From the IMG/VR virus record IMGVR_UViG_3300035228_001376, positions 1 through 27,506 of that record: a stretch of 27,506 bases of DNA. One strand, written 5' to 3'. The number at the start of each line of letters is the position of its first letter. Position 1 is the stretch's first letter. The stretch is from a virus (lineage: Duplodnaviria > Caudoviricetes). The notes under the pieces were generated by a model. That model saw nothing but the letters and a program-made list of their open reading frames with translations, did no database searches and was not told the DNA's origin. Below, in pieces: positions 3,644 to 27,506 of the stretch. The position numbers and the translations under genes are program-made.

Positions 3644-3958
3644 CTATTTTTTCTTTTTCTTCTCTGTAGCAACATTAATTGCTTTACCTTTACGGTTTGG
3701 ATTGCTATCCTGTCGATTCTTTCTTCTGAATGCACTATCCTCTTCTTTATCTGAGAGGTTGCGCTTCATTTTTGAAGAACCACATTTTGGTTTGGTTGTT
3801 TGACCTGGTTGTTTTGCACATGGTTTTCCTGCAAATTTACCACCCAATTGAACCCAACCAGGCTTGCCATCACTAGAACGACTCTTGCCAAACCAGTCGC
3901 GCAAAGAACTATCGCCACTTTTGTTAGACTCATTAATAAATTCCTCAAATGTTTTCAT
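3644..3958 (-). CDS. Basic 104-aa protein, putative internal head protein with a capsid-targeting-like N-terminus
   Basis: Begins MKTFEEFINE, resembling the T4 internal protein capsid targeting sequence MKTYQEFIAE. Lys/Arg-rich with two Cys. Its ATG lies 1 nt after the stop of the upstream -1-frame ORF. Confidence 0.8.
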   Translation of the reverse strand: MKTFEEFINESNKSGDSSLRDWFGKSRSSDGKPGWVQLGGKFAGKPCAKQPGQTTKPKCGSSKMKRNLSDKEEDSAFRRKNRQDSNPNRKGKAINVATEKKKKK

Positions 3959-3959
3959 A

Positions 3960-4235
3960 CTAGCAGTTCCAGCGACGTAATGCTTTGTTTATTTTAGAGT
4001 CTGGATCTCTTGCAGTTTTTGCAGAGGTCAGTCTCTTTTTCATACCTTTCATCCTGGAGCAGAATGAAGATCTACGCTTAGCATCTTTAGATCCCTTCTT
4101 AATTTTAGAAGGTTTAGTAGTAACTGCAGTCTTAAGTTTAGAACCTGGATTCTCTCTCTTATATGCATTTACTGTACTTTGACTCAGACCATCAGTCTTA
4201 TCTTTTCGATTGGCTTTTTGCCAATCTTCTTCTAC
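3960..4235 (-). CDS. Start-less 91-aa basic domain (DUF6321-like by recollection) in the -1 frame of the 542-aa gene; probable frameshift extension
   Basis: Manual translation: VEEDWQKANRKDKTDGLSQSTVNAYKRENPGSKLKTAVTTKPSKIKKGSKDAKRRSSFCSRMKGMKKRLTSAKTARDPDSKINKALRRWNC*. It exactly fills the gap between two genes. There is no in-frame ATG/GTG/TTG between the upstream in-frame TAA (~4262) and the late RMKGM methionines. Confidence 0.8.
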   Translation of the reverse strand, partial: VEEDWQKANRKDKTDGLSQSTVNAYKRENPGSKLKTAVTTKPSKIKKGSKDAKRRSSFCSRMKGMKKRLTSAKTARDPDSKINKALRRWNC

Positions 4236-4255
4236 TTTCCCAGGCGATCTTCCTC
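4208..4255 (-). promoter_or_regulatory. Candidate -1 programmed ribosomal frameshift cassette
   Basis: mRNA reads GAGG-aagatcgcct-G GGA AAG-TAGAAGAA-GATTGGC AAAAA GCCAATC. Slippery heptamer at 4241-4235, hairpin at 4226-4208. Confidence 0.6.
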
Positions 4256-5860
4256 TTTTTTATGTGCCTGTAAAAACTTCTCCTGAATCTGATGGAATGT
4301 CATTCCTTCAGACTTATTGCCATAGTTAGAAGCGCCCTTCTTACGACACTGAACTAATCTACCGCTAGCATACGCAGAAGGCCAAACCTTTGCACTTGCT
4401 TTTACTTTCTTATAGCAAGCATCTTTCTCGCCTGCTGCCTCTTCTACTTCTTCAAGACCAGGACAACACTTTTTACCATGAATTCCACAGTCTGTTCCTT
4501 TTGCAGTTTGAGCACACTCGGTCTCTTCAAATCTTGCTTTGGACTTTACCTTTTTACCATCGGGTCCAGGTACATACTCGCCAGTGTCAGAACTCTTCAT
4601 GTCACTGCTATTTACAGTGCCATCTGCATTAGAGTCAACTCTCTTGACTGCTTTACTGGTAAGTTTCTTTAGGTTCCCACCACCAATAGATGACTCATCT
4701 TTTGATTCTTTTTGTACTCTTACAATAGGTGAATTGTGAGGAGCATACTGACTAGGAAGATCAGTTCTCTGGAAGCGAGTTACTACTCCACCAGGATACA
4801 CTTTTTCAATTTCTCTTTGAACATCTTCTCTCTTTGGCATAGATGCCTGAGGGAAGAACATCTTCATCATAAGAGATCTGCCTCTCCACATGACAACAAC
4901 TGCTAACAAGTTACCATACTCTGCTGGAAGTCTTGTTGCCTCATCAACTTGAGTTTCTTCCTTTGTTGTTGCTTTAGCAGATTTGAAGTTACGAGCCATC
5001 TGCATTGATGCTTTTTTCTGTGCCTTTGCTCTCTTAGAACCTGGTTCGGTCCTTTCAAGATCATCAGACTTTTGCATTGCACGACGACCAGGAGACATAC
5101 GTGCTTTTTCATCACCACTCAATACTCTTTTATTAGTAGGAGATGGGGACTGATACATTCCCTTATAATCTTCAGTAGTCTTTTCTGCTTTTTTCTTAGC
5201 AGATTTTTTTACATACTTTTCTTTAGTAAAAGATTCTGGTTTACCACCATAAGCGGCTCTAACTGGTGCAGAACCCTTCACATAAGTTTCTGATTCTGAG
5301 ACTTCATCTTCCTTCACACAGTCAGGAACCATTTTACCGCCTTTATTCTTCATACCTTTTTTCTTATATCCTACCCAACATTTCTCTGCAATATCTTCAG
5401 GTTTAATTAAGTCAACAACTTCCATAAACTTATTGCCGAAAGCATCTTCAATAGCAAGAGATTCTCCCATGCCACCGCCGTCTCCACCGCCGTTGTCACC
5501 TTCACCACCTTCTACTGGTTTATCAATACCAACTTCTTCTGGTTCGCGACCACCACCACCATAGCGTGCAGTCATCTTCAATCCTTCAGGAATTTTTTTA
5601 CACTTCTTATCTGTATAGCAATAATACATTCCTTTGCCACACTTCTCTTCACCGAGAATAATATCAACTAGTTTTAATCCAGGAATAATCTCTTCTTGCT
5701 GACCCTGCTTAAGGTTGGGAAGACCAACTCTGCCACTAGGAGTCAACTTTTTTTTAGCGACTTCCCTTTCATTTGGGTTAGTAGATTTTTGCATATTACT
5801 AATCTTTGCCTGCTTTTTTGCAGTTTTATGATTTGTAGGATTTATATCGAAACTTGCCAT
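4232..5860 (-). CDS. 542-aa charged multi-module protein, putative internal head (poly)protein
   Basis: Long ORF after gp16 with its own late promoter. It is a string of short Lys/Cys-rich modules (CGKGMYYCYTDKKC; CWVGYKKKGMKNKGGKMVPDCV; DACYKKVKASAKVWPSAYASGRLVQCRKKG) joined by acidic x-x-E linkers. Confidence 0.85.
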   Translation of the reverse strand: MASFDINPTNHKTAKKQAKISNMQKSTNPNEREVAKKKLTPSGRVGLPNLKQGQQEEIIPGLKLVDIILGEEKCGKGMYYCYTDKKCKKIPEGLKMTARYGGGGREPEEVGIDKPVEGGEGDNGGGDGGGMGESLAIEDAFGNKFMEVVDLIKPEDIAEKCWVGYKKKGMKNKGGKMVPDCVKEDEVSESETYVKGSAPVRAAYGGKPESFTKEKYVKKSAKKKAEKTTEDYKGMYQSPSPTNKRVLSGDEKARMSPGRRAMQKSDDLERTEPGSKRAKAQKKASMQMARNFKSAKATTKEETQVDEATRLPAEYGNLLAVVVMWRGRSLMMKMFFPQASMPKREDVQREIEKVYPGGVVTRFQRTDLPSQYAPHNSPIVRVQKESKDESSIGGGNLKKLTSKAVKRVDSNADGTVNSSDMKSSDTGEYVPGPDGKKVKSKARFEETECAQTAKGTDCGIHGKKCCPGLEEVEEAAGEKDACYKKVKASAKVWPSAYASGRLVQCRKKGASNYGNKSEGMTFHQIQEKFLQAHKKEEDRLGK

Positions 5861-9753: not shown

Positions 9754-12700
9754 TTATGCAAGTGCAATAACTCTAAGGTCTCTGATTCTTGGCGGGTACG
9801 CCTGGTTTGTTGAGGTTCCCACGAGTTTAATGGTAAAGTATTTAAACTCTGGCAGAGTATCTATACTGAACTCAAAATCTTTGTAGATTAGGTTATCACT
9901 GTCAGATGCCAAAACATCTGTTTTGGAAACTTTTTTGTTTGGTAAACCATTACTCTCTGCAAAGTCTAGAATTTTACCATTTACATCCAAGTTGGTATAA
10001 CCAGGGAATGGGTAGTAAAGTGGTTCTATTTCTGGAGAATTACTAATAGAATAGAACGCTCTGATGTCATTGTAAGTATTGACATATCCTGCAAGAAGCA
10101 CCTTAATAGATGTTGCGGGATTTTCTAGTTCTACTGGTTTGTTTGCATAGATGAATGCGGTTGGATCCTCATTAAGACTTGCGGTCCTTGGGTCATTTTT
10201 ATAATCTGTAATTGGAGCATTTACTCTATTAGAGATCATAACCATACCAACTCGATCAAGGTCAATAACTGGAGATACATTACTATTTGCGGTAGACAAT
10301 GTAAATGTCAGTTCCATAGATTTATTACCAGGAAGACTATTGAGTTGTGCAAGCTCATTGACTCTAGAAGCAACCATTCTAGGTTCTGGAAGATAAGTGT
10401 CCTCATCGAGATTGATATTTGTCTTCTCAGTCTCAATGAATGAGATCTCATTACCATCCACACTAGTTGCTGAAATACCCTTCAGTTCTGCCGATATGGT
10501 TGTTCCTGGAAGAGTCATAGTTTGAACAATTGGTCTAACTGCTTCATACTGAATATTCTGTGTAGCGTAGATAAACTCTCCACCACTAGATTTAGCAGAA
10601 TTAATATAGAGTTTATTAAGACCAGATCCAGAACTTCTATCAACACCGTTAATTGCAGTATTGACTCTAATGTAATAAGAATCGAGAGTAATTGATCGGT
10701 TAACAAGAGCATCTTGCAGAGCGTGATCAGTATTGATCCTTCTCAGAGAGATACCATTGTTCTCATACTTCTGAATAGAAGTTTTTAATGGATATGTAAA
10801 GGTTCTTGTGTTATCAATACCTCTAGTAATTCCAATTAACTGACCTGCAGCGACACCAGTGTACGAGATGATCTCGTCATCAAGAAGTACATAACCTGGA
10901 TTAGTAGATGCAACAGATACATTCTCAAAAGTATTGTAACCAAGGGTACTTGCAACACTGATTGGTCCTGAATCTGAGTTTGTATACTCTGCGGTAAGAT
11001 TGGTTGCTTTAATATCACCCTTAACACCAGCAATTCTTACCGTGTTAAGTGTGGAATGCATACCATGGTTTTTATGATTAACCTTGATATGTAGACCATC
11101 TTCCGCAAGAGTTGCAAGTTCAAAATCAAGAATTCGCGTATTACCACCAGAAACCGAAGTCAGAGTTGTAATCCCTGCAGCACTTATAAATTGTAAGGGT
11201 TTAGCGCCGTTGAGTTCAAATTCGCCCTGGATATTATCAATGATTAATTCATTGATACCAGTTACATTTCCAAGAGATAGTTGAAGATTTCTTCCTAACT
11301 GATCATTGCCGAAGTTGCCAACGGTAAATACATCACCGACTTGATAACCAGAACCACCAGTATTAATTGTTGCTCCAATAGCAATACCGTTAGTAGATCC
11401 TTGAGCACCAATTGTAATATCAGCAGTGGCATTTCTGCCATTACCACTAAATGTTACGAGTGGCACATTTGCAAAGGTAAACTGAGTCCCATTAGATGGA
11501 GTATATCCAATACCTGCGTTGATAATTGTCAGATCTCCTGTTGCAGATCCACCAGCACCAACATAGTCACCACTTACATTAGCGTTCTCTTGAATAATAG
11601 TATTACCAATAACCAAACTAGAGGTATCGATAATATCCTGACCCGTAAGAATTACTCTCTTTGACTCAAATTCAAACGCATCTTTGACGAGGTTTGCAAT
11701 CTGACTATTACCCTTATCAAGTTCTGGGTTAAAGAATGATATGGTAGCACTCTCATCAAAACCTGCAGTATAAAGACTAAACTTGAGATCCTCATATTGA
11801 GAAGCATTCCAAGTAGAACCATTCTGAGACTTGAACAAGGAACCTAGGTGTGGTTGTGCGGACACAAGAACCTGTCTAGATTCTGCTTGAAGCAGAGTAC
11901 TAATGTCAACCTCACCCATTCTGGAAATCCAGACGGTATATTCGTTAGACTGTGACAGAAGAACAACGCAGTGTTCTGTTCCACCATTCAAGTAAACTGG
12001 TGCAGGGAACAATACCGTTGTAGGAACCGTTGCATCAAAAGACTCTTCAATTTGATCAGATTCGAGAATTACTTCTCCAAACGGATAAATTTCATTTGAT
12101 GGATATCCATTAACCATTGGTCTCAGTTGTACTGTGACAGATAAAAGTGGATCCTTCGTTCTGAAGAATACTTCAATTTCTGTTACAAATGCACCTGGAT
12201 CATCCACAATCGTAAATGATTGTGCCAAGGGATCTTTACCTCTTCTGGGCGGTCTTGGGGGACGTGGCGGACGAGGTGGTCTCGGAGGACGTGGCGGTCT
12301 TGGAGGTCTTGGAGGGGGCGCTGGACGCGGACGTGGCGCTGGCCTAGGTCGCACCGATGGACGCGGTGGTGCCGAAGGTCTTGGCCTTGGTGGTGGTGGT
12401 GGTGGCGGTGGTGGTGGCGGTGGCGGCGGTAAGACCCTAACGCTAGTACTAGTACTATTAGTAATTGCAGTGGTTACCTGTACATCAGTTGCTGGTCTAG
12501 CTTCAGCTGTTGCTCTTCTTTCAAATCTTGGTTTTCTTGTAGATCTAATAGTTTCTTGAACATTATTGAGAGTACCTGAAGCAAAGTACGCTTCTTCTCC
12601 GCTAGTATCTGTAAGACCACCGATAGTGCTATTTACAGAACTACTTGTAAGTCTAAAGACTTTTGTACCAACCTCAAAGGTTGGGTTTGTTGGATTATTT

Positions 12701-17424: not shown

Positions 17425-19008
17425 TTAGAATTGCAAAATAACTTTGATATCTTCTCTTTGATTTACTGACCTAGTAATGGAAGGTCTATTATCAACGTAA
17501 AGTATGATTCCAGAATATTTTTCTGCTTCTGGATCTGCGACACCCTTAATATAAGTTTGTCCCAGGTAGTATGTTCTATTATTTATCACGGTACTAATAC
17601 CTGGATTTGTGTCTGTTCCAAATCCCTCATCAATGAACAATTCTTTACTTCCACCAACAATTTTTAATGAACCCCCTCCTTGGAGAGTGCTAGAAAATAA
17701 ATTTTGATCATAACCAAATTCAGGATTTGATTTTTGAGTCCCATCAGTATTGAATCCGACAAGAGATCTATCTTGCCAGTACCTTAAGACACCAGTTTGA
17801 GCATCATATGAGATAACCCTGCCAGTAGCAGTAACTCCTGTACCAATTGTTTGCTTGATTAAAGAATTTGCTTCAAATGTAGTTGTTTTAAAATCTTCTT
17901 GGTTTGGTGATTGTCCTTTGAGGACAAGACCATATAAAGCACTTGCCCTATCATCAGATAAGACTGCATTTGATTTAAATCCTTTTGGATTTTCTACAAT
18001 ACCAATTCTTGCGATAGATGCTCCAGTAACAAAGTCTGGATTTTGATCATCATTTTCAATTCTAGAGTAAATTAGAACATTAGTTGACCCAAGTTCTGAA
18101 TATATATTGGACCCATGACCACCTGGTGGTGGAATAATTATATCAAAAATAGGTGTTGTTGATCCTGTTGGAACATTACCACCAACTAAGTCAATACTGC
18201 CATATGTATATCCAGTACCACCATTAGATACTGTAATTGACTCTACTTTTGAATCATTGTTTACGACAATGGTACATTCTGCATCATTACCATCTCCTTT
18301 AATTGGAACCCTAGAATATGTAGAGTTTGGAGGACCAACAAGGAAACCTCTATTCCTAACAGTGACAGTTTTTAACTGCCCACTAGTAATTGCATTATTT
18401 TTAACCGTGGTATACTCGGCATTAGTCTCCCAATCAACAGGAAGTGGAATAAAGTTTAGAGAGTCAAATTTAATTACATCACTAGGACTAATCGTATAAA
18501 GATACTTCCAAACATATCCATCACCACTAGTACCAGCAGATCTTGGTTCTAAATCGGTAAACTTTGGTTCATCTAGAGAAGGTTTTCCATTAGGATTCTC
18601 TGGATCAATTCCATTATTTAAACAAATATATACTCGGAACTCACTATTTAAAATATAATAGTTCGACGCATATAAACTTGTTTTGTTTGATGGTTTTGAT
18701 AAGTTATTACGATTCACATCATGACGATACATATCGTAAATGGTTGCAGATGCCCACTGAATCTTTCTTACGACTGGTCTGATATCATCAGCAGAAATCT
18801 TTTTGAGTGCCACCATAGTATCCCAATATGTATTGGAATCGTCAAAGCAATCTCTTGGAGAGGGTGGGGAGGTATCCCATGACGAAGCAACTTCTGAGGC
18901 ATTAGGTAGTCCAATAAACGTATAATACGAGTTATTGGCGTCCCTAATTTTCTCAATAAAGTTCCTAGCGTTATTAACTCTCAATAAATCAGTTATAATT
19001 GCTGCCAT
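17425..19008 (-). CDS. gp8: Baseplate wedge subunit gp8
   Basis: MAAIITDLLRVNNARNF, YTFIG, VYICLNNG, DGYVWKYLYTI, PPPGGHG, terminal YSGIILYVDNRPSITRSVNQREDIKVILQF. Confidence 0.94.
   Translation of the reverse strand: MAAIITDLLRVNNARNFIEKIRDANNSYYTFIGLPNASEVASSWDTSPPSPRDCFDDSNTYWDTMVALKKISADDIRPVVRKIQWASATIYDMYRHDVNRNNLSKPSNKTSLYASNYYILNSEFRVYICLNNGIDPENPNGKPSLDEPKFTDLEPRSAGTSGDGYVWKYLYTISPSDVIKFDSLNFIPLPVDWETNAEYTTVKNNAITSGQLKTVTVRNRGFLVGPPNSTYSRVPIKGDGNDAECTIVVNNDSKVESITVSNGGTGYTYGSIDLVGGNVPTGSTTPIFDIIIPPPGGHGSNIYSELGSTNVLIYSRIENDDQNPDFVTGASIARIGIVENPKGFKSNAVLSDDRASALYGLVLKGQSPNQEDFKTTTFEANSLIKQTIGTGVTATGRVISYDAQTGVLRYWQDRSLVGFNTDGTQKSNPEFGYDQNLFSSTLQGGGSLKIVGGSKELFIDEGFGTDTNPGISTVINNRTYYLGQTYIKGVADPEAEKYSGIILYVDNRPSITRSVNQREDIKVILQF
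17580..17587 (-). promoter_or_regulatory. Possible internal late promoter for the 2554-aa gene
   Basis: Minus-strand GATAAATA within the gp8 3' end, about 160 nt upstream of the ATG at 17418. Could be a chance match in AT-rich coding DNA. Confidence 0.35.
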
Positions 19009-19033: not shown

Positions 19034-19041
19034 TATTTATT
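19034..19041 (-). promoter_or_regulatory. T4-type late promoter upstream of gp8
   Basis: Minus-strand AATAAATA overlapping the upstream TAA, about 25 nt before the gp8 ATG. Confidence 0.82.
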
Positions 19042-22000
19042 AGGAAATATAACCGAGATATTTGAGTGGATTTTTACGTCTCAATATTGGATTGGTTGTA
19101 ATACCAGATTGAGACCCATTATGTGCCACATCCCAGTTCTTGGGTCCAATCCTTACGGGAAGACCAACTTTACCCCATGTGTAGTATCCATAGAGTGCAG
19201 TTGTAGCAACACCAACTACGTTATTTGATCCAGCACTTTGTAGAGACACAACAACTGATGTTACTGTTGTTCCAAGACCAACGGTTGTTCCAAGTCCATT
19301 CAGACCTGCAGGAACTACGGATTGTTTTGTATAGTAGTCAATACATTCATAAGTCATGTCACCATGAAGTGTTGATATTCCAATTACAGAACCATCAGCA
19401 CTAAGAGAAGTTTGACCAGCACTTACAAAGTTAGTCTGATTAAGGTTAAATAAATCTCCAGTTGTAATTCCAGGGAGAGTTATATTCAATCCACGTCTCA
19501 TATCAGAATCCATTGGGATATATAAGTCAAAGACCACTCCCATACTGGTTCCTGCACCAATGGTAGTTGTACCAACACCGACGACTAATCCATAGTCACC
19601 CTCATATGTTACAAATCGACATTCCTCAAGACCTCTATCTGGTGTAGCAATCAGTACTGGAGGTGGACTAATTGTTGCGACATTAAATTTAATTGGAGAA
19701 GAAAGTGCAAACTGCCTGGATGTTGTTGCAAGACCGACATTATCGTAAGTATCAACAATCAAAGTGTCCCCAATTTGATAATTTGCACCACCTTGCAATA
19801 TAGTAACTGAAGCAACTTGAAAGTTAATTGGACTAAGTTCAATGTCAGCAACAGCACCCACACCCACACCAGATGTATTTTTAAGTTTTGCTCCTCTGAA
19901 TACATTATTGGAACCATCAATTGGTGGGAATCCAGCACCCTGTTGCTGAACTGTCATAGAAGCAAGAGGCCCGTAATAGTAATTTGATCCACCAGCACCT
20001 ACTGATACTGAGATTAAAGATCCACCAGCACCAACAACAGCTCCACCCGTTGCTTGTGTGCCACCTGGATATGGAGATGCAATAGTTACCTCAGGTGCAG
20101 ACGTATACCCATATCCTGGATTTGTAAGAATAACATTTACAATAGATCCTCCTGCACCAATAACTGCAGTTGCAGTTGCGGGTATTACATTATCTTGAGA
20201 TATGATCTCCACCTCAGATCTTTCATCTGCACCGATTCCTTCAAATGGATTATCAAATAATGGTCTAAGGTCATACACATATACTGAACTAGCTCCAACA
20301 CCAATATTACTAATAATATTTGTATTTGGATTAACTATTGGTTCATAGTAGACTCTATCCTTACCAATGTATTCATTATCAATGATCTTATCAACTTGTT
20401 GCTTAGACCAAGAAAGTGGTCTCTCAAATAGTTCATCTAGTGTTACACCTTGACCAGCATAGTTATTTGTAATAACTTTATCTGCTGCCTTAATTTCCAT
20501 TACCAGTCTAGGATCTTCAGTAAACGTTGTATTTTGGTTACTATAAAGTTGAACCTCGTCACCAACTTTAACACTGGGCAAAACATCCACTGTGCGAACG
20601 TCAATATCTTGTGTACCAGTGTACATAAAGATTTTCGCAGTATCACCTTCTGTTGTAAATCCAGTAACACCACCTTTAGGTGCTTCTGTAAATCTAATGG
20701 TGCTACCACCAGTAAACTGATAACCTTCTCCAGGAGTCTGGAGAATGTCGTTAACAAATACCAGAAGATTGGATTGGAGATTAATACCAGAGTTTGATTT
20801 TGCGAAGAATGAAATGCTGTCTCCATTTACAGATAGTGGGAATAGTCTTCTTGCCCCATTGAAGAATAAATCAACTCGGTCAAGAACGATAAACTCACCA
20901 ACATTCCAACCAGAGAATTTGGATGCGAATATTTTATCTACAGTTAGTTCAAACTGAGAGTATGAACCAACACCAACAAATACATGTTGATATTGTAAAC
21001 TTGCTGGTGATGGTCCAGCAAATACGGTGATACTGTCAGAAGTAAAGGAGGTAATACCTACCGACTTACCATAGATGTTTGTATCCTTATTTGCTCTTGG
21101 ATATGCTTCAATGCTACTATAATTATCAAGAGAGCACTTGAACAACAGTGACTCATTGGCAAGTCGAATACTATTTGCAGTTGTTAAATTATGAGTTCCA
21201 ATGGTGAGAACAGAAAGACCTGTCGCAGGATCATAAGTAGCATCCGTAACAGGATACTTGACCAAAGTAGATATACCAACAAATATTGTGATTGTATCTG
21301 TTGTTCTACTTGTAATTGCAGTTACAATTCCAGCAATCGGGTCAGTTGCTTTTGGATAGTATGTAACAGTTGAACCGCCGTCCATGCCACAAGTAAATGC
21401 GATTGTACCTGTGGCAATACCTACAGTATTCGATGTTGTATATGGGTGTCCTGGAATAGTTAGAATAAGTTCTCCAGTAGAACCAGAATAAGTTGCCGTA
21501 GTTGGAGTAGTTGTGCCAATTCCTGTTACATTGACACTTCCTGCTTCGGCACTTACAAATGTGTGTGGATAATCACCACCAGCAACAACAGGAAGAATTG
21601 CATTGGAGGTCTTTGTAGCAAATGTTTGAATTCCAACAGTTCCTCCAATTGCAACAGTCAATTTCTCGCCAGAACCATACCCATATCCAAATTTATTAAC
21701 TTCAAAGTTAAGAATGGTACTATCAAAACTTGGAATAAGATCGACAGTTGCTCCAGTACCAAATCCAACATTATCTGATGAATAAATTAGATCAATACCA
21801 TCAAGTGGTAATGGTTGATCAATTACAACATCAAGAGGCATTCTAACTTCACCACACCTCTTATATTCATGAGTATATGGAGATATGCCAGAATTAATGA
21901 TGAATGAGAAATCATCAACAATTTTAATAACAGTTGTTCCATCTACAGAAGGATCTTGCCCCGTTGGTGAGTTATTAATTTGTCTAGGCGCTTTAATAAT

Positions 22001-25000
22001 CTCTTCAACAATACCACCAGAACTGTAGAAAGTTGGGACAGTACTTACGCCAACATTGATTTCAAATTCAGTAATACTATTAATTTTAGTAACTGGTGTA
22101 CCACAATAAGTTGGATCACTGACTCTTGGATAAGTATGAATTCCAACCCCTAGATCACAAGTAAATCCAAGTCCAGTAAGAGCAGTATCGGTGCCAATTT
22201 TAAGTTTGTGACCGAAGGTTAATGTTCCACCACTTACGTAATAATGAGGGATAGTAGAAATTCCTGCATTAAATGTAAGCGTATTCCAATTTGGTGAAGA
22301 AGAAACACTAAATGTGTCTCCAAGAGGAGAGTTTTGAGCATTTCCTGGGAAGATATTTGTTGTAATACCAGTTTGAACAACACCACCAGTCACATATGCA
22401 TGAGAGATTGAAGATATACCAACACTTACAGTAAATGAAGTTGTTGTTCCAACGTTATTGACATTGAAGAAATATCCTTGAGATCCATCTGGGAACTTAG
22501 TTGTAGTAAGTCCAGCGGTTACCTGACCAGCATCATTCTCAACATAAGAGTGTTGGATAGTTGATATACCAACATATAATTCAAACTTATCGGATGCTAT
22601 TACATTAGTAACAGAATACGTATATCCTTGAGTTCCATCTGGGAAGATGCTAGTGGTAACACCAGAACCTCCTGGACAAGAGAACTGAAGATTGTCAAGT
22701 CTAATATCACTACCAATTCCTATAATACCAGTAATAGGCTGAGAAGTAGTAACTGTAGACAAACCAGTAGCATTGTCATACTTGAACTGTGTAACCGTAA
22801 ATGTCTGTCCATAACCAGTTGCTCCTCCAACGTTACAACTAAAAATAAGTTCTCTCATCTTAAAGTCGTCGGATGCACTCAAACCATGATCTGTTGTGGT
22901 AAATACCGTTGCTAATCCAGTCGTGTTATCATATACAAAATCATAAACACCAAAAGTTTGACCATAACCAACACATGATAATCCCAATCCAGCAAGACTA
23001 AAGCTTCTTCCGATAGCAGTCATCGGAACAATTTTCATTGGTTCCAATGTTGTAATTGTTGCAAAACCAGTAAGATTGTCATAAGTGAAGTCACTTACGG
23101 TAAACGTAGAGGTTCCAGTACTAACTGTCATGATGCCAGTTGTATTGTCATACAGGGCGTTTGTAACGTCCACTGGTGGGTAGTAATCACAGGTGAATGC
23201 TGCACCTACAACTTGGACTTCATTACCCAACTGCAAGTTATGTCGGAGTAAAGTTGTAACAGTTGTTATACCAGTTACAGAACTATATCCAATATTAGTT
23301 ATTTCTTTAGGTTCATAGAAGACTTTAGTGCTAGTAATAGCAACACCAACAACATGACCATCAACAATAGTTGCAATACCAACATTAGTGATATTTGCTG
23401 CACCAAAACTTGCAGTTTGAATACCTACAGATACAGTTTGTAAACCAGATCTATAACCAGCACCAGAATTACCAATTGAAATGCTTTCAATTGTTCCTGT
23501 TGAAGATACTAAAGCAGTTGCACCAGCACCAATTAGGGGTTGGAATCCATATCCTTCTTTAGAGGCAACACTAACAATGATGCCACCTTTTGGAACATTA
23601 TTTACATTAATATCACTATGAATTTGTGGGTCAGTAAGTTCTCCATTAAATCCAAGTTCTAATGCACCACCACCAGCTTCTAATTTATAATCACCCTCAA
23701 TATTAGTAAGAACATTACCGAGTCTTTGAGGACCTTGGAATATATCATCAATTAGAATGATTGTGTTCTTTGCAACAATATTATCAATATCATTTCCTTT
23801 ATATTTTAAGGTAAATGATGTTGTTAGTCCATTGAATTCATTGGAAATATCATCATATACAAAGTTATTGTCATATGCAGGTAAGAAACTTGTAGTGAAT
23901 GCCTGACTAAGTGCAGATCTTAAGAAGATGCGACCACTAAATCTGGAACTAGTAGTAAGTCCAGAGTAATCAACATCACCAGCATCTCGTGCGGTTGTTC
24001 CTAAACCTACAGGTACATTGCCCCAAGGACCTTCAATAAAGTGAAGACTATTTCTGACAACACTATAGTTGCCCGCCTGTCTAGTCATGACATCAGAAGA
24101 ACTATGAGATGCCTCAGTTGATCCCATCCATCCTCTTCTAACTGTGAAGGTATTGCTAATATTATTAGATGCTGCAACAAGCATTACCTCATCATTTACT
24201 CTAAGAAGATCTCCACCAAAGATTGAGGTAACACCGACAACATTGATTATAGTTGATCCAATACCAACACCTGCACTTAAGGCAGTAGTGACAGCAGTTC
24301 CCACCATTGGGGATTGAATAGTTCCATTAACCGTAATTAAGAGTCTATTGTTGGGTTCAATTGCTCTAAAAATATGGGTAGATCCTATACCTACACCAGT
24401 TAAACCAACACCAATTGGGTTAAAAAGAAGTGCATTTGTTGCGGAAATGGCAACTCTGACCTTCTGATTATCTTGTTTAATAATAAAGAATTGAGATGGT
24501 AATAATGTTGTGGTTCCAATTCCAACACCAAAGTCAGTTTCTTGAATTTGAATTGAATTTGCTTTATTATTTCCTGGTGGAATATACTCAATGAGTTCTC
24601 CACTTACAAAGTAGTGATTATTAACATTAATTGTTCCCTCTCCAATCCCAATACGAGTAGAGTCACTACCGTTAAACTCAATTTCAAAAATAGGATTATT
24701 AGATGTAAATAATTCAAATCCTCTCTGTTGCCCATTAAATTGATCACTAAAGTCATCAATGGTCAGAACTCTGTTACCAATAAACTCTTGATATTTTGCA
24801 AGGAAGGGTAAGTTGAATAGTATCTCATTCGATACTAATTTGCCACTAACATCGATACTTTTTTCTCGTCCAATATCAAAATCTTTAACAGTATTGATAT
24901 CTACAATATTTGTTAGGTCCGAAATTGCAATAACAGTATTTAAATCTTGAGATGTTTGAATACCTGATATAGTTGGATCATAAGAATCGATCACTAACTC

Positions 25001-27506
25001 GCTAAATTTTTTAAATCCTGCGGTGTGATTAAGATTACTTACAATGGGATTCCACTTATCATATGAGATAGAAGATCTAACTGAGTATGAGAAATACTGG
25101 TAGTAATCATTATCATGAATTCTCTGGAAGAATTTATTCAGTTTACCTGTATCTCTTAACCAACCTCTTCTAGTAACACTATTGGAACCAATCGTATACT
25201 TGGCACTAATACCGTCAACACTGGATATTAGACCTTTGTTTTGCGATGATTGTCCAATTATTAATCCATCAATACTAAACGGAATCTTAGACCTTACTCT
25301 TAAATACTCATTTTTAGTGTCATATGATTGAACAACTCCAACATTATCATTCTCATCAATAATAACCTCACCAGTTCTAAATGAATCTTTTTCCAATTCA
25401 ATAATAAATTGAGGAAAGTATGATTCTGGAGTTACAGTACCAAAGGAATCAAAACTATCGAAGTTGCCTGGTTGTTCACCTGGTTTAAGATATTCGTCTA
25501 GACTATATGTGATTGTTGGATTATCTCCAGTTAGGTCTGGATCTACTGCCGTTAAAACAAATAGAGCATACCCATAATCTGCAGAATTATATCCCACTGG
25601 TTTGGATACTATGGTGTCAGTGTTTGTGTTCTCAACTATTACTTTATCACCTACTTTGAAAGGATAAGTTTCAGCACTTGAAAATGTAACTGCCAATCCA
25701 ATTGTGACTACTTTATTACTACTATCAAAATTAATATCTTGAATTCTAACTCCATTTGGATTATTAACTGGAAGAATTCTTGGAGTTACATTATAAAGAC
25801 CTGTGGTATTTCTTACAATTTGTACATCAGTATCGCCAATATTATAAGCAAGAGAAACTTCACTATTGACTCTTCCAGTAAATCCATCAAGAACAACTAA
25901 TTGTGGGGGTATAAAATAATTGACACCTGGATTACCAATAGTAATAGATTTAAACTTAGATAACGGTTCAATCTTGTAAGTATATGGGAACTGTGCAATC
26001 GGACGCAATGTCTTATCTGGCGGATAATCAAATCCAATATCAGTCAGAACAATAGAGTTTACTTTACCAGATGTAGTACTAGCAGGTAAGAAAATTGCAC
26101 CTGTTCCACCAGCACTAACAATTTTGCTGACATTTGGTAAACTTCTATACCCACGCCCAATAGAGTCTAATATCACTTTGTCAACAGGACCAATGGCAGT
26201 TAGTGAAGTTGTGCTGTAAGTTAATTTTCCCTCATTACTTGGATAAAGAGTTCTCTCTGGAGTTTCTCTGAGAGTATAGTTAAATGTATTAGATGTTATA
26301 CCAGTGATATTTGTAGTAATATTATACTTACTATTAATAATTGATAATTTATTAGAGTTTTTAATATTAAAAATATCTCTAATGATGCCCAATTTGTCTT
26401 CAGATGCCCCATTATATTCGATGGGAACCAAATTATAGAAGAGATTATTAGGAACAGAATCACTAATAATTAATTCTAATTTTGCACCTGGTTGTCCAAT
26501 AGTGCCTGACGATTTCACACTAAATTCGTTTACGTTTGAAGGGGCTTGACCACCAAGGAAGTCAAAGGTGGCAACTATTTTTTCACCATAGTAAAACTCA
26601 TCAGATAATTCTTCATCAGAGAATAATATAAATTTAAATGCAGGTAAAGAATTTGCAAGAAGAGTTTGGTCGGACAGATCAAAAATCAGTGTAGAATCTC
26701 GAATTCCACTTAATTCTGGGTTAATTAAACTCAAACTACCAAAAGATGTAGTACTAATATTAATAATCTCAACGTCTTCATCTGAAGAGATTACTTCATA
26801 GTAATAATTTGATAAGCAGATTGTATTGTCATCAAGTTTAATTACATGATAGATAAGTGAATTATCTAATCCTTGAGGGGGAGATGATGAGTTGAAGATA
26901 ACTTTCTCACCGTTTTTGAATCCATGGTTTGGAATATTGATACTATTTCTTATGGTATCAACATCAGAACTAATAAAACTTTTTGGGTTGACAACCATAC
27001 GACGATTGAGGTCATCATATGCAATTTTTATTGATGTCTGAATACCCGCAATTACATTAATAACAGCACTATCTCCATCACTCAAACCATGAGGAGTCTT
27101 TGTTGTAATTTTTGCCGACTTTTTATAGACATCAGCAGTAATAGTTAGAGGTTCATTTGTAGTAAAACTATGAATCTCTCCCCCACCATAATCACTAAAA
27201 GTATATAATGCTAATGCTTCAGATCCAACACCAACAAATCCACCAGTAGATCCAATACCAATCTTCGCTGTAGAAATTCCGATGGAATTAACATCATACG
27301 CTGCAATATACACCTTTTGATCATTCACTAATTGCATGGTAGTTCCTGCAATTCCTACAGTAAATGCTGATCCACCCGCGCCAACATTGTAGGTAAGAAG
27401 ATCATTGGTTTTAAATCCATGGTTTGGAAGAAAGATTGTATTTAATCTTGGCGTAACAAGAGATTCTTGAGATACACCAGGATTACTAAGATAAAGAAGT
27501 CCCGAT
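19040..27506 (-). CDS. gp7: Giant baseplate wedge initiator gp7-like protein, C-terminal ~2820 aa (true start lies outside the window)
   Basis: The frame stays open from 27337 to the window edge (SGLLYLSNPGVSQ...LPNHGFKTND...). It carries the gp7-type motif RIHDNDYYQYFSYSVRS...NHTAGFKKF, lies directly upstream of gp8, and has many HG[FL]-type and GxGY beta-repeat modules. Confidence 0.8.
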   Translation of the reverse strand, partial: SGLLYLSNPGVSQESLVTPRLNTIFLPNHGFKTNDLLTYNVGAGGSAFTVGIAGTTMQLVNDQKVYIAAYDVNSIGISTAKIGIGSTGGFVGVGSEALALYTFSDYGGGEIHSFTTNEPLTITADVYKKSAKITTKTPHGLSDGDSAVINVIAGIQTSIKIAYDDLNRRMVVNPKSFISSDVDTIRNSINIPNHGFKNGEKVIFNSSSPPQGLDNSLIYHVIKLDDNTICLSNYYYEVISSDEDVEIINISTTSFGSLSLINPELSGIRDSTLIFDLSDQTLLANSLPAFKFILFSDEELSDEFYYGEKIVATFDFLGGQAPSNVNEFSVKSSGTIGQPGAKLELIISDSVPNNLFYNLVPIEYNGASEDKLGIIRDIFNIKNSNKLSIINSKYNITTNITGITSNTFNYTLRETPERTLYPSNEGKLTYSTTSLTAIGPVDKVILDSIGRGYRSLPNVSKIVSAGGTGAIFLPASTTSGKVNSIVLTDIGFDYPPDKTLRPIAQFPYTYKIEPLSKFKSITIGNPGVNYFIPPQLVVLDGFTGRVNSEVSLAYNIGDTDVQIVRNTTGLYNVTPRILPVNNPNGVRIQDINFDSSNKVVTIGLAVTFSSAETYPFKVGDKVIVENTNTDTIVSKPVGYNSADYGYALFVLTAVDPDLTGDNPTITYSLDEYLKPGEQPGNFDSFDSFGTVTPESYFPQFIIELEKDSFRTGEVIIDENDNVGVVQSYDTKNEYLRVRSKIPFSIDGLIIGQSSQNKGLISSVDGISAKYTIGSNSVTRRGWLRDTGKLNKFFQRIHDNDYYQYFSYSVRSSISYDKWNPIVSNLNHTAGFKKFSELVIDSYDPTISGIQTSQDLNTVIAISDLTNIVDINTVKDFDIGREKSIDVSGKLVSNEILFNLPFLAKYQEFIGNRVLTIDDFSDQFNGQQRGFELFTSNNPIFEIEFNGSDSTRIGIGEGTINVNNHYFVSGELIEYIPPGNNKANSIQIQETDFGVGIGTTTLLPSQFFIIKQDNQKVRVAISATNALLFNPIGVGLTGVGIGSTHIFRAIEPNNRLLITVNGTIQSPMVGTAVTTALSAGVGIGSTIINVVGVTSIFGGDLLRVNDEVMLVAASNNISNTFTVRRGWMGSTEASHSSSDVMTRQAGNYSVVRNSLHFIEGPWGNVPVGLGTTARDAGDVDYSGLTTSSRFSGRIFLRSALSQAFTTSFLPAYDNNFVYDDISNEFNGLTTSFTLKYKGNDIDNIVAKNTIILIDDIFQGPQRLGNVLTNIEGDYKLEAGGGALELGFNGELTDPQIHSDINVNNVPKGGIIVSVASKEGYGFQPLIGAGATALVSSTGTIESISIGNSGAGYRSGLQTVSVGIQTASFGAANITNVGIATIVDGHVVGVAITSTKVFYEPKEITNIGYSSVTGITTVTTLLRHNLQLGNEVQVVGAAFTCDYYPPVDVTNALYDNTTGIMTVSTGTSTFTVSDFTYDNLTGFATITTLEPMKIVPMTAIGRSFSLAGLGLSCVGYGQTFGVYDFVYDNTTGLATVFTTTDHGLSASDDFKMRELIFSCNVGGATGYGQTFTVTQFKYDNATGLSTVTTSQPITGIIGIGSDIRLDNLQFSCPGGSGVTTSIFPDGTQGYTYSVTNVIASDKFELYVGISTIQHSYVENDAGQVTAGLTTTKFPDGSQGYFFNVNNVGTTTSFTVSVGISSISHAYVTGGVVQTGITTNIFPGNAQNSPLGDTFSVSSSPNWNTLTFNAGISTIPHYYVSGGTLTFGHKLKIGTDTALTGLGFTCDLGVGIHTYPRVSDPTYCGTPVTKINSITEFEINVGVSTVPTFYSSGGIVEEIIKAPRQINNSPTGQDPSVDGTTVIKIVDDFSFIINSGISPYTHEYKRCGEVRMPLDVVIDQPLPLDGIDLIYSSDNVGFGTGATVDLIPSFDSTILNFEVNKFGYGYGSGEKLTVAIGGTVGIQTFATKTSNAILPVVAGGDYPHTFVSAEAGSVNVTGIGTTTPTTATYSGSTGELILTIPGHPYTTSNTVGIATGTIAFTCGMDGGSTVTYYPKATDPIAGIVTAITSRTTDTITIFVGISTLVKYPVTDATYDPATGLSVLTIGTHNLTTANSIRLANESLLFKCSLDNYSSIEAYPRANKDTNIYGKSVGITSFTSDSITVFAGPSPASLQYQHVFVGVGSYSQFELTVDKIFASKFSGWNVGEFIVLDRVDLFFNGARRLFPLSVNGDSISFFAKSNSGINLQSNLLVFVNDILQTPGEGYQFTGGSTIRFTEAPKGGVTGFTTEGDTAKIFMYTGTQDIDVRTVDVLPSVKVGDEVQLYSNQNTTFTEDPRLVMEIKAADKVITNNYAGQGVTLDELFERPLSWSKQQVDKIIDNEYIGKDRVYYEPIVNPNTNIISNIGVGASSVYVYDLRPLFDNPFEGIGADERSEVEIISQDNVIPATATAVIGAGGSIVNVILTNPGYGYTSAPEVTIASPYPGGTQATGGAVVGAGGSLISVSVGAGGSNYYYGPLASMTVQQQGAGFPPIDGSNNVFRGAKLKNTSGVGVGAVADIELSPINFQVASVTILQGGANYQIGDTLIVDTYDNVGLATTSRQFALSSPIKFNVATISPPPVLIATPDRGLEECRFVTYEGDYGLVVGVGTTTIGAGTSMGVVFDLYIPMDSDMRRGLNITLPGITTGDLFNLNQTNFVSAGQTSLSADGSVIGISTLHGDMTYECIDYYTKQSVVPAGLNGLGTTVGLGTTVTSVVVSLQSAGSNNVVGVATTALYGYYTWGKVGLPVRIGPKNWDVAHNGSQSGITTNPILRRKNPLKYLGYIS
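21842..23310 (-). repeat. Five nested copies of a ~95-aa beta-domain within gp7 (protein-level repeat)
   Basis: Five Y[DS]xxTGxxTxxT N-halves in a row, followed by five ...G[IV]SxxxxxYxxxG C-halves. Confidence 0.75.

Follow-up and report, generated by a model that had tools for sequence, protein, structure and literature searches.

Five nested copies of one predicted barrel domain in the gp7 baseplate protein of a T4-like marine cyanophage

Introduction

When one small domain occurs five times in a protein chain and four of the copies are split, which half belongs to which, and what could such an arrangement do? This question is raised by a stretch of DNA of 27,506 nucleotides (IMG/VR record IMGVR_UViG_3300035228_001376, positions 1 to 27,506; this whole stretch is called the window below). 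These 27.5 kb come from a T4-like marine cyanophage, and the open reading frame (ORF) at 19040-27505 encodes the C-terminal 2821 amino acids (aa) of gp7, the baseplate wedge initiator. A first-pass annotation had read a segment of this protein as five N-terminal halves of a domain followed by the five C-terminal halves, and had proposed that the domains are nested last-in-first-out, with the chain running out and back as a two-stranded five-domain antenna that grew by repeated insertion of the domain into itself.

Results

All eleven pieces placed by the first-pass annotation were found in one frame of ORF 19040-27505, within 21839-23302, in the order N1 N2a N3 N4 N5 and then C5 C4 C3 N2b C2 C1 (N and C denote the halves and the numeral the barrel; these and all other features of the window given here are on the minus strand). 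N1 (23189-23302; strands 1-3 of barrel 1, with a cysteine at the end), N3 (22973-23098) and N4 (22835-22948) were located by profile matches. They are followed by barrel 5, which is innermost and uninterrupted (22514..22795, with N5 at 22676-22795 and C5 at 22514-22648), and by C4 (22370-22498), C3 (22214-22354), C2 (22001-22135) and C1 (21839-21994). The N-half of barrel 2 is in two pieces: N2a, the first hairpin (23117-23167), covers positions 1-19 of the 38-position N-half profile, and N2b, the remainder from the HxL motif to the cysteine (22157-22213), covers positions 16-38, so that the pieces are complementary. In relatives with only two levels N2a runs directly into the HxL motif, the point at which, according to the first-pass annotation, domain 2 resumes after domains 3-5. 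The segment contains homologous domains in discontinuous segments and in A1-B1-C-B2-A2 order, as in recursive self-nesting.

The N-half profile that placed N2a and N2b was seeded partly from the gp7 protein itself, and to avoid circularity independent profiles were built only from gp250 of phage S-CAM7. These recovered 10 of the 11 pieces (N1, N2a, N3, N4 and N5 at 14-45 bits and C5 to C1 at 8.5-49 bits; best scores in 200 shuffles 4.9 and 6.3 bits). The first of the downstream copies and N2b, which is 19 residues long, were missed. When the profiles were run on the reversed protein and on 8 other ORFs of the window, all scores stayed below 5 bits. Pfam scans found no match in the segment, as had been anticipated, and nothing useful in the single barrels; the PHROGs matches on the segment were only partial and came from three families. 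The whole segment (query residues 1-493/494) was matched by 20 IMG/VR loci at 76-94% identity, and 21564-23600 is covered, with 2 differing letters, by one contig of a run without a possible-source mark. The nest is therefore not an assembly artefact.

The pairing of the halves was read from two predicted structures. The first was an AlphaFold2 model of the segment from a 38-row alignment (predicted local distance difference test, pLDDT, 73.9; predicted template modelling score, pTM, 0.53), and the second covered the segment plus flanks (901 aa; pLDDT 64.8, pTM 0.41). In the first model each unit has six strands and each half three, and 49 of the 50 listed single-barrel matches cover one of five nested ranges, which correspond to N5-C5 (residues ~165-271, 21 matches), N4-C4 (115-318, 5), N3-C3 (66-372, 19), N2-C2 (43-438, 1) and N1-C1 (1-494, 3). 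These matches comprise about 70-95 aligned residues with a root mean square deviation (rmsd) of 2-3.5 Å; the remaining listed match (161-307, rmsd 4.3 Å) is ambiguous. For the second model 47 of the 50 listed matches fall in the same ranges (38, 2, 5, 1 and 1) and 3 do not.

Relatives in which a barrel is uninterrupted gave a second line of evidence. In a survey in which 7981 candidates of 866-2470 aa were scored, 355 distinct uninterrupted units were found, and for 39 of them the type of both halves could be assigned (identity of 50% or more, with a margin of 0.08). All but one of these 39 lie on the nested diagonal: 22 pair N2 with C2, two pair an N4 with a C4-type half (in the loci L026 and P0011), and 14 are the trivial 5-5 case. 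In the two-level relatives nothing but N1 and C1 is present besides domain 2, and the pairing of N1 with C1 is thereby fixed; with 2, 4 and 5 also fixed, N3-C3 follows by elimination. The predicted six-stranded fold, similar to the FCCH barrel of E1 enzymes, together with nested pairing is highly probable on these data, and the earlier proposal of last-in-first-out nesting with a chain that runs out and back agrees with both models and with the relatives.

Several observations weigh against this pairing. It was read in the models from the first and last aligned residues of single-barrel matches rather than from a contact map or coordinates, the pTM of both models is low, and the linkers between barrels 3, 4 and 5 have pLDDT below 50. 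Unfiltered, only 130 of the 355 units lie on the diagonal, and no uninterrupted barrel 1 or barrel 3 was found among the relatives' units. When the similarity matrix of the N-halves was compared with that of the C-halves (Mantel test), the nested order of the window gave r = 0.13 (rank 49 of 120) and the parallel order r = 0.44 (rank 12 of 120). This ranking favours halves that pair in parallel order, but in eight other trees nested r exceeded parallel r in 8/8 (S-CAM7 being a tie; p<0.05 in 4/8, three of them kin). Among the 100 listed matches of the two models no parallel range occurs except one ambiguous row (168-511), the uninterrupted relatives fix 2-2, 4-4 and 5-5, and linkers of 5-13 residues would be too short to span a parallel pairing in one chain. 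Folding of the halves as independent tandem units is opposed by their having three strands each, and both the parallel and the tandem arrangement are extremely improbable. It is also very unlikely that the N-halves pair with the C-halves of another chain to give an oligomeric two-stranded fibre; split barrels with flexible linkers can swap in this way, and both models contain a single chain only, but the innermost barrel closes via a 10-residue loop and the wedge is expected to hold one gp7-type chain, as the T4 wedge does. The available text on the Pam3 baseplate likewise describes six heterotriplexes "similar to T4" (PMC9942802).

Balance of the halves was examined separately by parsing them as opening and closing brackets in 120 database proteins. 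In total 103 proteins were balanced (shuffle mean 23, maximum 41) and 111 never close a domain that was not opened (shuffle mean 26), in a test that cannot separate nested from parallel pairing, with redundant records and with continuation pieces ignored in the count. In most of the unbalanced cases inspected a match stood at the sequence end, as expected of fragments.

The fold search placed the barrels among known six-stranded barrels. The top match was the barrel inserted in the phi92 endosialidase (4hiz 255-341; Z 8.8-9.0, rmsd 2.0-2.1 Å, 82 residues; Z 8.8 for barrel 5), followed by the FCCH domain of E1 enzymes (PF16190; Z 8.6-8.8, rmsd 2.3-2.5 Å, about 80 aligned residues) and the head-tail protein of phage FCWL1 (Z 8.3-8.4). 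On the six-stranded antiparallel FCCH barrel the predicted barrel 5 superposes with Z 8.7 and rmsd 2.3 Å over 78 residues. Foldseek gave a probability of 1.0 for Uba1 and Uba6, and the nearest named Atlas cluster is also E1 FCCH (score 0.87, a lead only). The gp7 barrels differ from it in that identity is 13-15%, and they are repeated, self-nested and equipped with a near-invariant cysteine and histidine, outside any E1 context. None of 6 single barrels reaches the gathering cut-off of PF16190, barrel 5 has no Pfam match, and a relative (P0081) scores 27.4 against the cut-off of 29.5. Like the barrels of the nest, the phi92 barrel is an inserted domain, in its case within a phage host-recognition protein, but it is a single copy in a catalytic tailspike and has no sequence match to the gp7 barrels. 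A profile search of Protein Data Bank sequences gave one unrelated match (E 0.66).

After dereplication at 70%, conservation was calculated across 290 N-halves and 260 C-halves. Tyr6, Gly11 and Cys38 are conserved at 99-100% in the N-half, for which the seeds required Tyr, Gly and Cys; in the C-half the values are 97% for Gly, 93% for Ser, 93% for His and 89% for Tyr. Nine of the 12 cysteines in the 2821-aa fragment are within barrels. The domain recurs in proteins named tail fibre or endosialidase and in one protein that carries Mtd_N and S74 domains, and within the gp7 fragment the PHROG tail-fibre families match the barrels only. A Pfam scan of the 2821-aa fragment detected no trimer-forming shaft repeat and no S74 chaperone family. 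Two relatives with nested barrels (P0031 and P0108) also have a precomputed Pfam hit to phycobiliprotein (PF00502).

Barrel 1 sits in turn within a Gly-Tyr repeat unit of gp7, which constitutes a sixth, non-homologous level. The part of this unit before the nest is at 23333..23554 and its returning strand at 21809..21832 (strand 593-596 in the second model); in gp7 of phages Bellamy and S-SM2 the unit is uninterrupted. Barrel 3 is inserted after strand 2, i.e. after the first hairpin, of barrel 2, whereas the insertions in barrels 1, 3 and 4 use another loop. Because the hairpin returns to its starting end, barrel 3 exits barrel 2 at the barrel-1 end. This strand order points to a likely fork or sharp bend of the arm at barrel 2, and we think it probable that barrel 2 forms a knee or side lobe and barrels 3-5 the arm proper. 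The antenna of the first-pass annotation thus retains its five nested domains and its out-and-back chain and probably loses its straight shape. Given the low pTM and the linker pLDDT below 50, the models do not fix the overall shape of the arm or the orientation of the barrels.

Further downstream a second nest was found at 20972..21610. The copies there (21500-20990) had been taken as uninterrupted; they are instead two circularly permuted barrels, one inside the other, with the last strand of U2 at 21584-21610, U1 at 21251-21565 and the rest of U2 at 20972-21250. Close relatives carry 0, 1 or 2 barrels at this site (inserts of about 8, 119 and 223 aa). Where one barrel is present, its last strand comes first in the chain, and immediately behind this strand lies the insertion point of the second barrel. 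In the second model pLDDT is below 50 over residues 601-667, and among the listed matches of its fold search neither the Gly-Tyr repeat nor the U barrels appeared.

To compare nesting depth among homologs, the orthologous gp7 site was delimited by two flanking anchors, which gave 69 records that are redundant and do not represent independent events. The depth is 2 in 31 records, 5 in 22 (the window included) and 4 in one, the site is empty in two, and the other 13 carry other trees or tandem strings. Depth therefore differs among homologs, in which the first-pass annotation had advised surveying it. The cultured phages Sf-CH8 and S-SCSM2R have trees in gp7, apparently at nearby positions. Three insertion points were found among the relatives: after the first hairpin (barrel 2), after the cysteine (barrels 1, 3 and 4) and inside the C-half (L054 and L077).

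Two proteins other than gp7, S-CAM7 gp250 (L086:8065-20571) and gp265 of ACG-2014f isolate C90 (L093:5623-17526), are about 4000 aa long and contain 30-32 barrels. Both are nested 8 deep and their brackets close to zero (30 N and 30 C in gp265). Relative to isolate C90, gene 253 of ACG-2014f isolate US26 (L084:10555-14652) has an in-frame deletion of about 7.8 kb via about 41 shared bases, which may be real or an assembly collapse.

Several records bear on how depth changes. P0011 has N4, the loop of barrel 5 and C4, which corresponds to two junctions relative to the five-level form. The depth-4 locus L026, in which barrel 4 has neither the cysteine nor the histidine, looks like a one-junction loss of barrel 5. 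A GYGQTF linker precedes N4 and N5 alike. DNA identity between halves is 48-63%, with C4/C5 the highest pair, and is therefore too low to date the events. In a tree of 23 rows the depth-4 and depth-5 forms were grouped (96/99), but the order of 4 versus 5 was not polarised. No clean one-level deletion was found in the contigs of four runs. Two joints from one low-depth contig were not used, as the sequence between them is unknown. Growth by repeated self-insertion, as proposed in the first-pass annotation, is thus plausible but not demonstrated; losses also seem to occur, and the tree is silent on 4 versus 5.

The assignment of the ORF to gp7 is based on a match to PHROG 2885 (baseplate wedge subunit, E=0) and on tblastn, in which the best cultured relatives, Synechococcus and Prochlorococcus phages, are labelled gp7 or baseplate wedge initiator (443 records, all below 60% identity). 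The neighbouring gene at 17425..19008 encodes the baseplate wedge subunit gp8 (Pfam Phage-Gp8, E 1e-14; PHROG 438), and both the family match and the place directly upstream of gp8 are those of gp7 in T4-like cyanophages. The 5' end of the gene lies beyond the window, and with it the baseplate-anchoring N-terminus that belongs to the wedge core assembling with gp6. Of 20 runs containing DNA of the window, 18 are labelled marine or seawater metagenomes.

Elsewhere in the window, the gp18 tail sheath gene (1-1380) has inserted Gly-Tyr repeat units that by eye resemble the repeat around the nest. A 2554-aa DUF4815/VrlC-like structural ORF has a low-complexity insert rich in proline and arginine (12134-12559; poly-Pro, then PRPP repeats). 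A 70-aa ORF between gp17 and gp18 (1463-1675) has two CxxC motifs and is a possible zinc ribbon, and two lysine-rich ORFs with cysteine-containing segments lie between the neck genes and the terminase (3644-3958 and 4232-5860).

Discussion

The closest known architecture is that of Si3 in the cyanobacterial RNA polymerase subunit RpoC2, where copies of a small beta domain are likewise put together from distant segments by a chain that runs out and back to form an elongated body. The available text describes a body 150 Å long with eight sandwich-barrel hybrid motifs (SBHMs), four of which, SBHM-2 to -5, are built from discontinuous segments (PMC10895346). In a 2026 survey of 2.7 million domains, as far as its main text goes, the six-level recursive insertion of Si3 is the showcase of complex nesting, and the words "phage" and "viral" are absent from that text (PMC13114784). 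The gp7 nest is architecturally like Si3 and is not a member of the Si3 family. Its units are predicted FCCH-like barrels and appear to differ in fold from SBHM/HABAS domains: Foldseek ranked 8emb first (E 1e-4), but with TM 0.07 and probability 0.10, and no SBHM was present among the 50 listed rows of either model's fold search, which are six-stranded barrels. Si3 lies in the trigger loop of an RNA polymerase, whereas the nest is in a virion protein, a baseplate component that is not an enzyme; and the nest varies in depth at a single site (0-5), related proteins have up to 8 homologous levels, and at least three insertion loops are in use. Gp7 of T4 and the gp7 fusions of giant cyanophages share with the present protein the gp7-gp8 gene order and the family match. 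A proposal for the giant cyanophage genes is that they are fibre-like fusions attached through their N-termini, and the repeats described in the available text are tandem (PMC1079782); here there is a nested barrel tree, predicted to be monomeric, in an internal loop. The literature searched, which included few subscription papers, gave no description of domain nesting in any virion protein of a phage.

What might such a nest do? We favour, with moderate confidence, a last-in-first-out arm of five barrels that would extend from each wedge, is probably forked, and likely provides a multivalent grip on host-surface polymers. As the site of the nest is an internal loop of gp7, the chain has to leave from and come back to one point, and nesting would convert this constraint into reach, with the barrels stacked via two linkers each; tandem copies in the same loop would give a cluster, and both arrangements occur at the site. 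With one gp7-type chain per wedge there would be six arms per virion. The tip is just another barrel and no distinct tip domain is present, and the barrels themselves are therefore likely the working units. Such barrels in endoNF reportedly bind polysialic acid. The domain is found in proteins of the tail-fibre and tailspike type, with a barrel inserted in an endosialidase as its top fold match, and binding of the barrels to the host surface is the reading that we place ahead of the others, at somewhat short of an even chance.

Some findings count against a host-binding arm. Some lineages can do without the arm, since the gp7 site is empty in the cultured phages Bellamy and S-SM2, and the deletion in US26 gene 253 leaves about 5 N-halves without partners. 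The fold matches, with Z of 8-9 and identity of 11-15%, are barely above the level common for unrelated barrels, and a fold shared with the phi92 and FCCH barrels shows no function. The nest could instead be a passive spacer or scaffold that places fibres or other virion proteins and binds no host. This would suit the conserved residues, which are mostly Gly, Tyr, hydrophobic strand positions, Cys, His and Ser, the FCCH-like matches among head-tail and tail-tube proteins (9jlf and 9n71) and the lack of a distinct tip; but the wide variation in depth and tree shape at one site would better fit a host-facing part, and the recurrence of the domain in fibre and tailspike-type proteins also speaks for a host-facing role, and we hold the scaffold to be rather unlikely.

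A chemical role was also considered, in which each barrel forms a Cys-His site when its halves close (for metal, redox or covalent attachment) and the tree multiplies these sites. The cysteine ends the N-half in 99% and the histidine is present in 93% of the C-halves, most cysteines of the fragment are in barrels, the strand ends at 159 and 304 of the model may make the two residues cross-strand neighbours, and both are lost together in barrel 4 of L026; the available text on cyanophage Pam3 moreover describes disulfides that hold fibres to the wedge (PMC9942802). But the seeds of the N-profile required the cysteine, barrel 2 is without the histidine throughout, P0111 keeps the histidine without the cysteine, and two ligands are insufficient for a metal site; this role is unlikely. 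About as improbable, or slightly more so, is that depth is functionless, an insertion-prone domain being spread in surface loops by recombination and kept if folded. The empty site in two cultured phages, the apparent secondary loss in L026 and the large unbalanced deletion in one isolate record are what such accretion would leave. Against it, the five-level form is intact in its 22 of the 69 site records down to 73-80% identity and without stops, and in the diverse halves Cys is kept in 99%, His in 93% and Ser in 93%.

As to how the proposed arm could lengthen or shorten, an out-of-register exchange in which one crossover joins adjacent N-halves and a second joins adjacent C-halves would add or remove a level and leave the brackets balanced. 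We give this mechanism about an even chance. The P0011 junctions, the GYGQTF repeat and the likeness of C4 and C5 would fit such an exchange, or an event in which barrel 4 was duplicated and the copy inserted into the original. More tentatively, virion appendages of marine T4-like cyanophages may follow a bracket grammar driven by recombination. A Cys/His barrel that offers three or more loops for insertion would be copied into itself through paired crossovers, and one chain could thereby form branched arms that grip the host. Their shape and their depth, 0-5 here and 8 elsewhere, would be adjusted by lineage in the way that tail-fibre length is controlled.

Deep self-nesting of one domain is rare, and here it is found in a virion protein, where a single orthologous site has natural forms of depth 0, 2, 4 and 5 as well as tandem arrangements. 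What this window contributes is that depth series, together with a likely fork, a second nest of permuted barrels and an intermediate with two junctions. For the design of branched single-chain scaffolds the barrel offers a ready module. The cultured carriers Sf-CH8, S-SCSM2R, S-CAM7 and ACG-2014f are amenable to cryo-electron microscopy, and the system makes it possible to test which DNA-level events enlarge a nested architecture, how folding proceeds in a chain with five domains still awaiting their second halves, and what part the unexplained bulk of giant cyanophage baseplate proteins may have in host capture.

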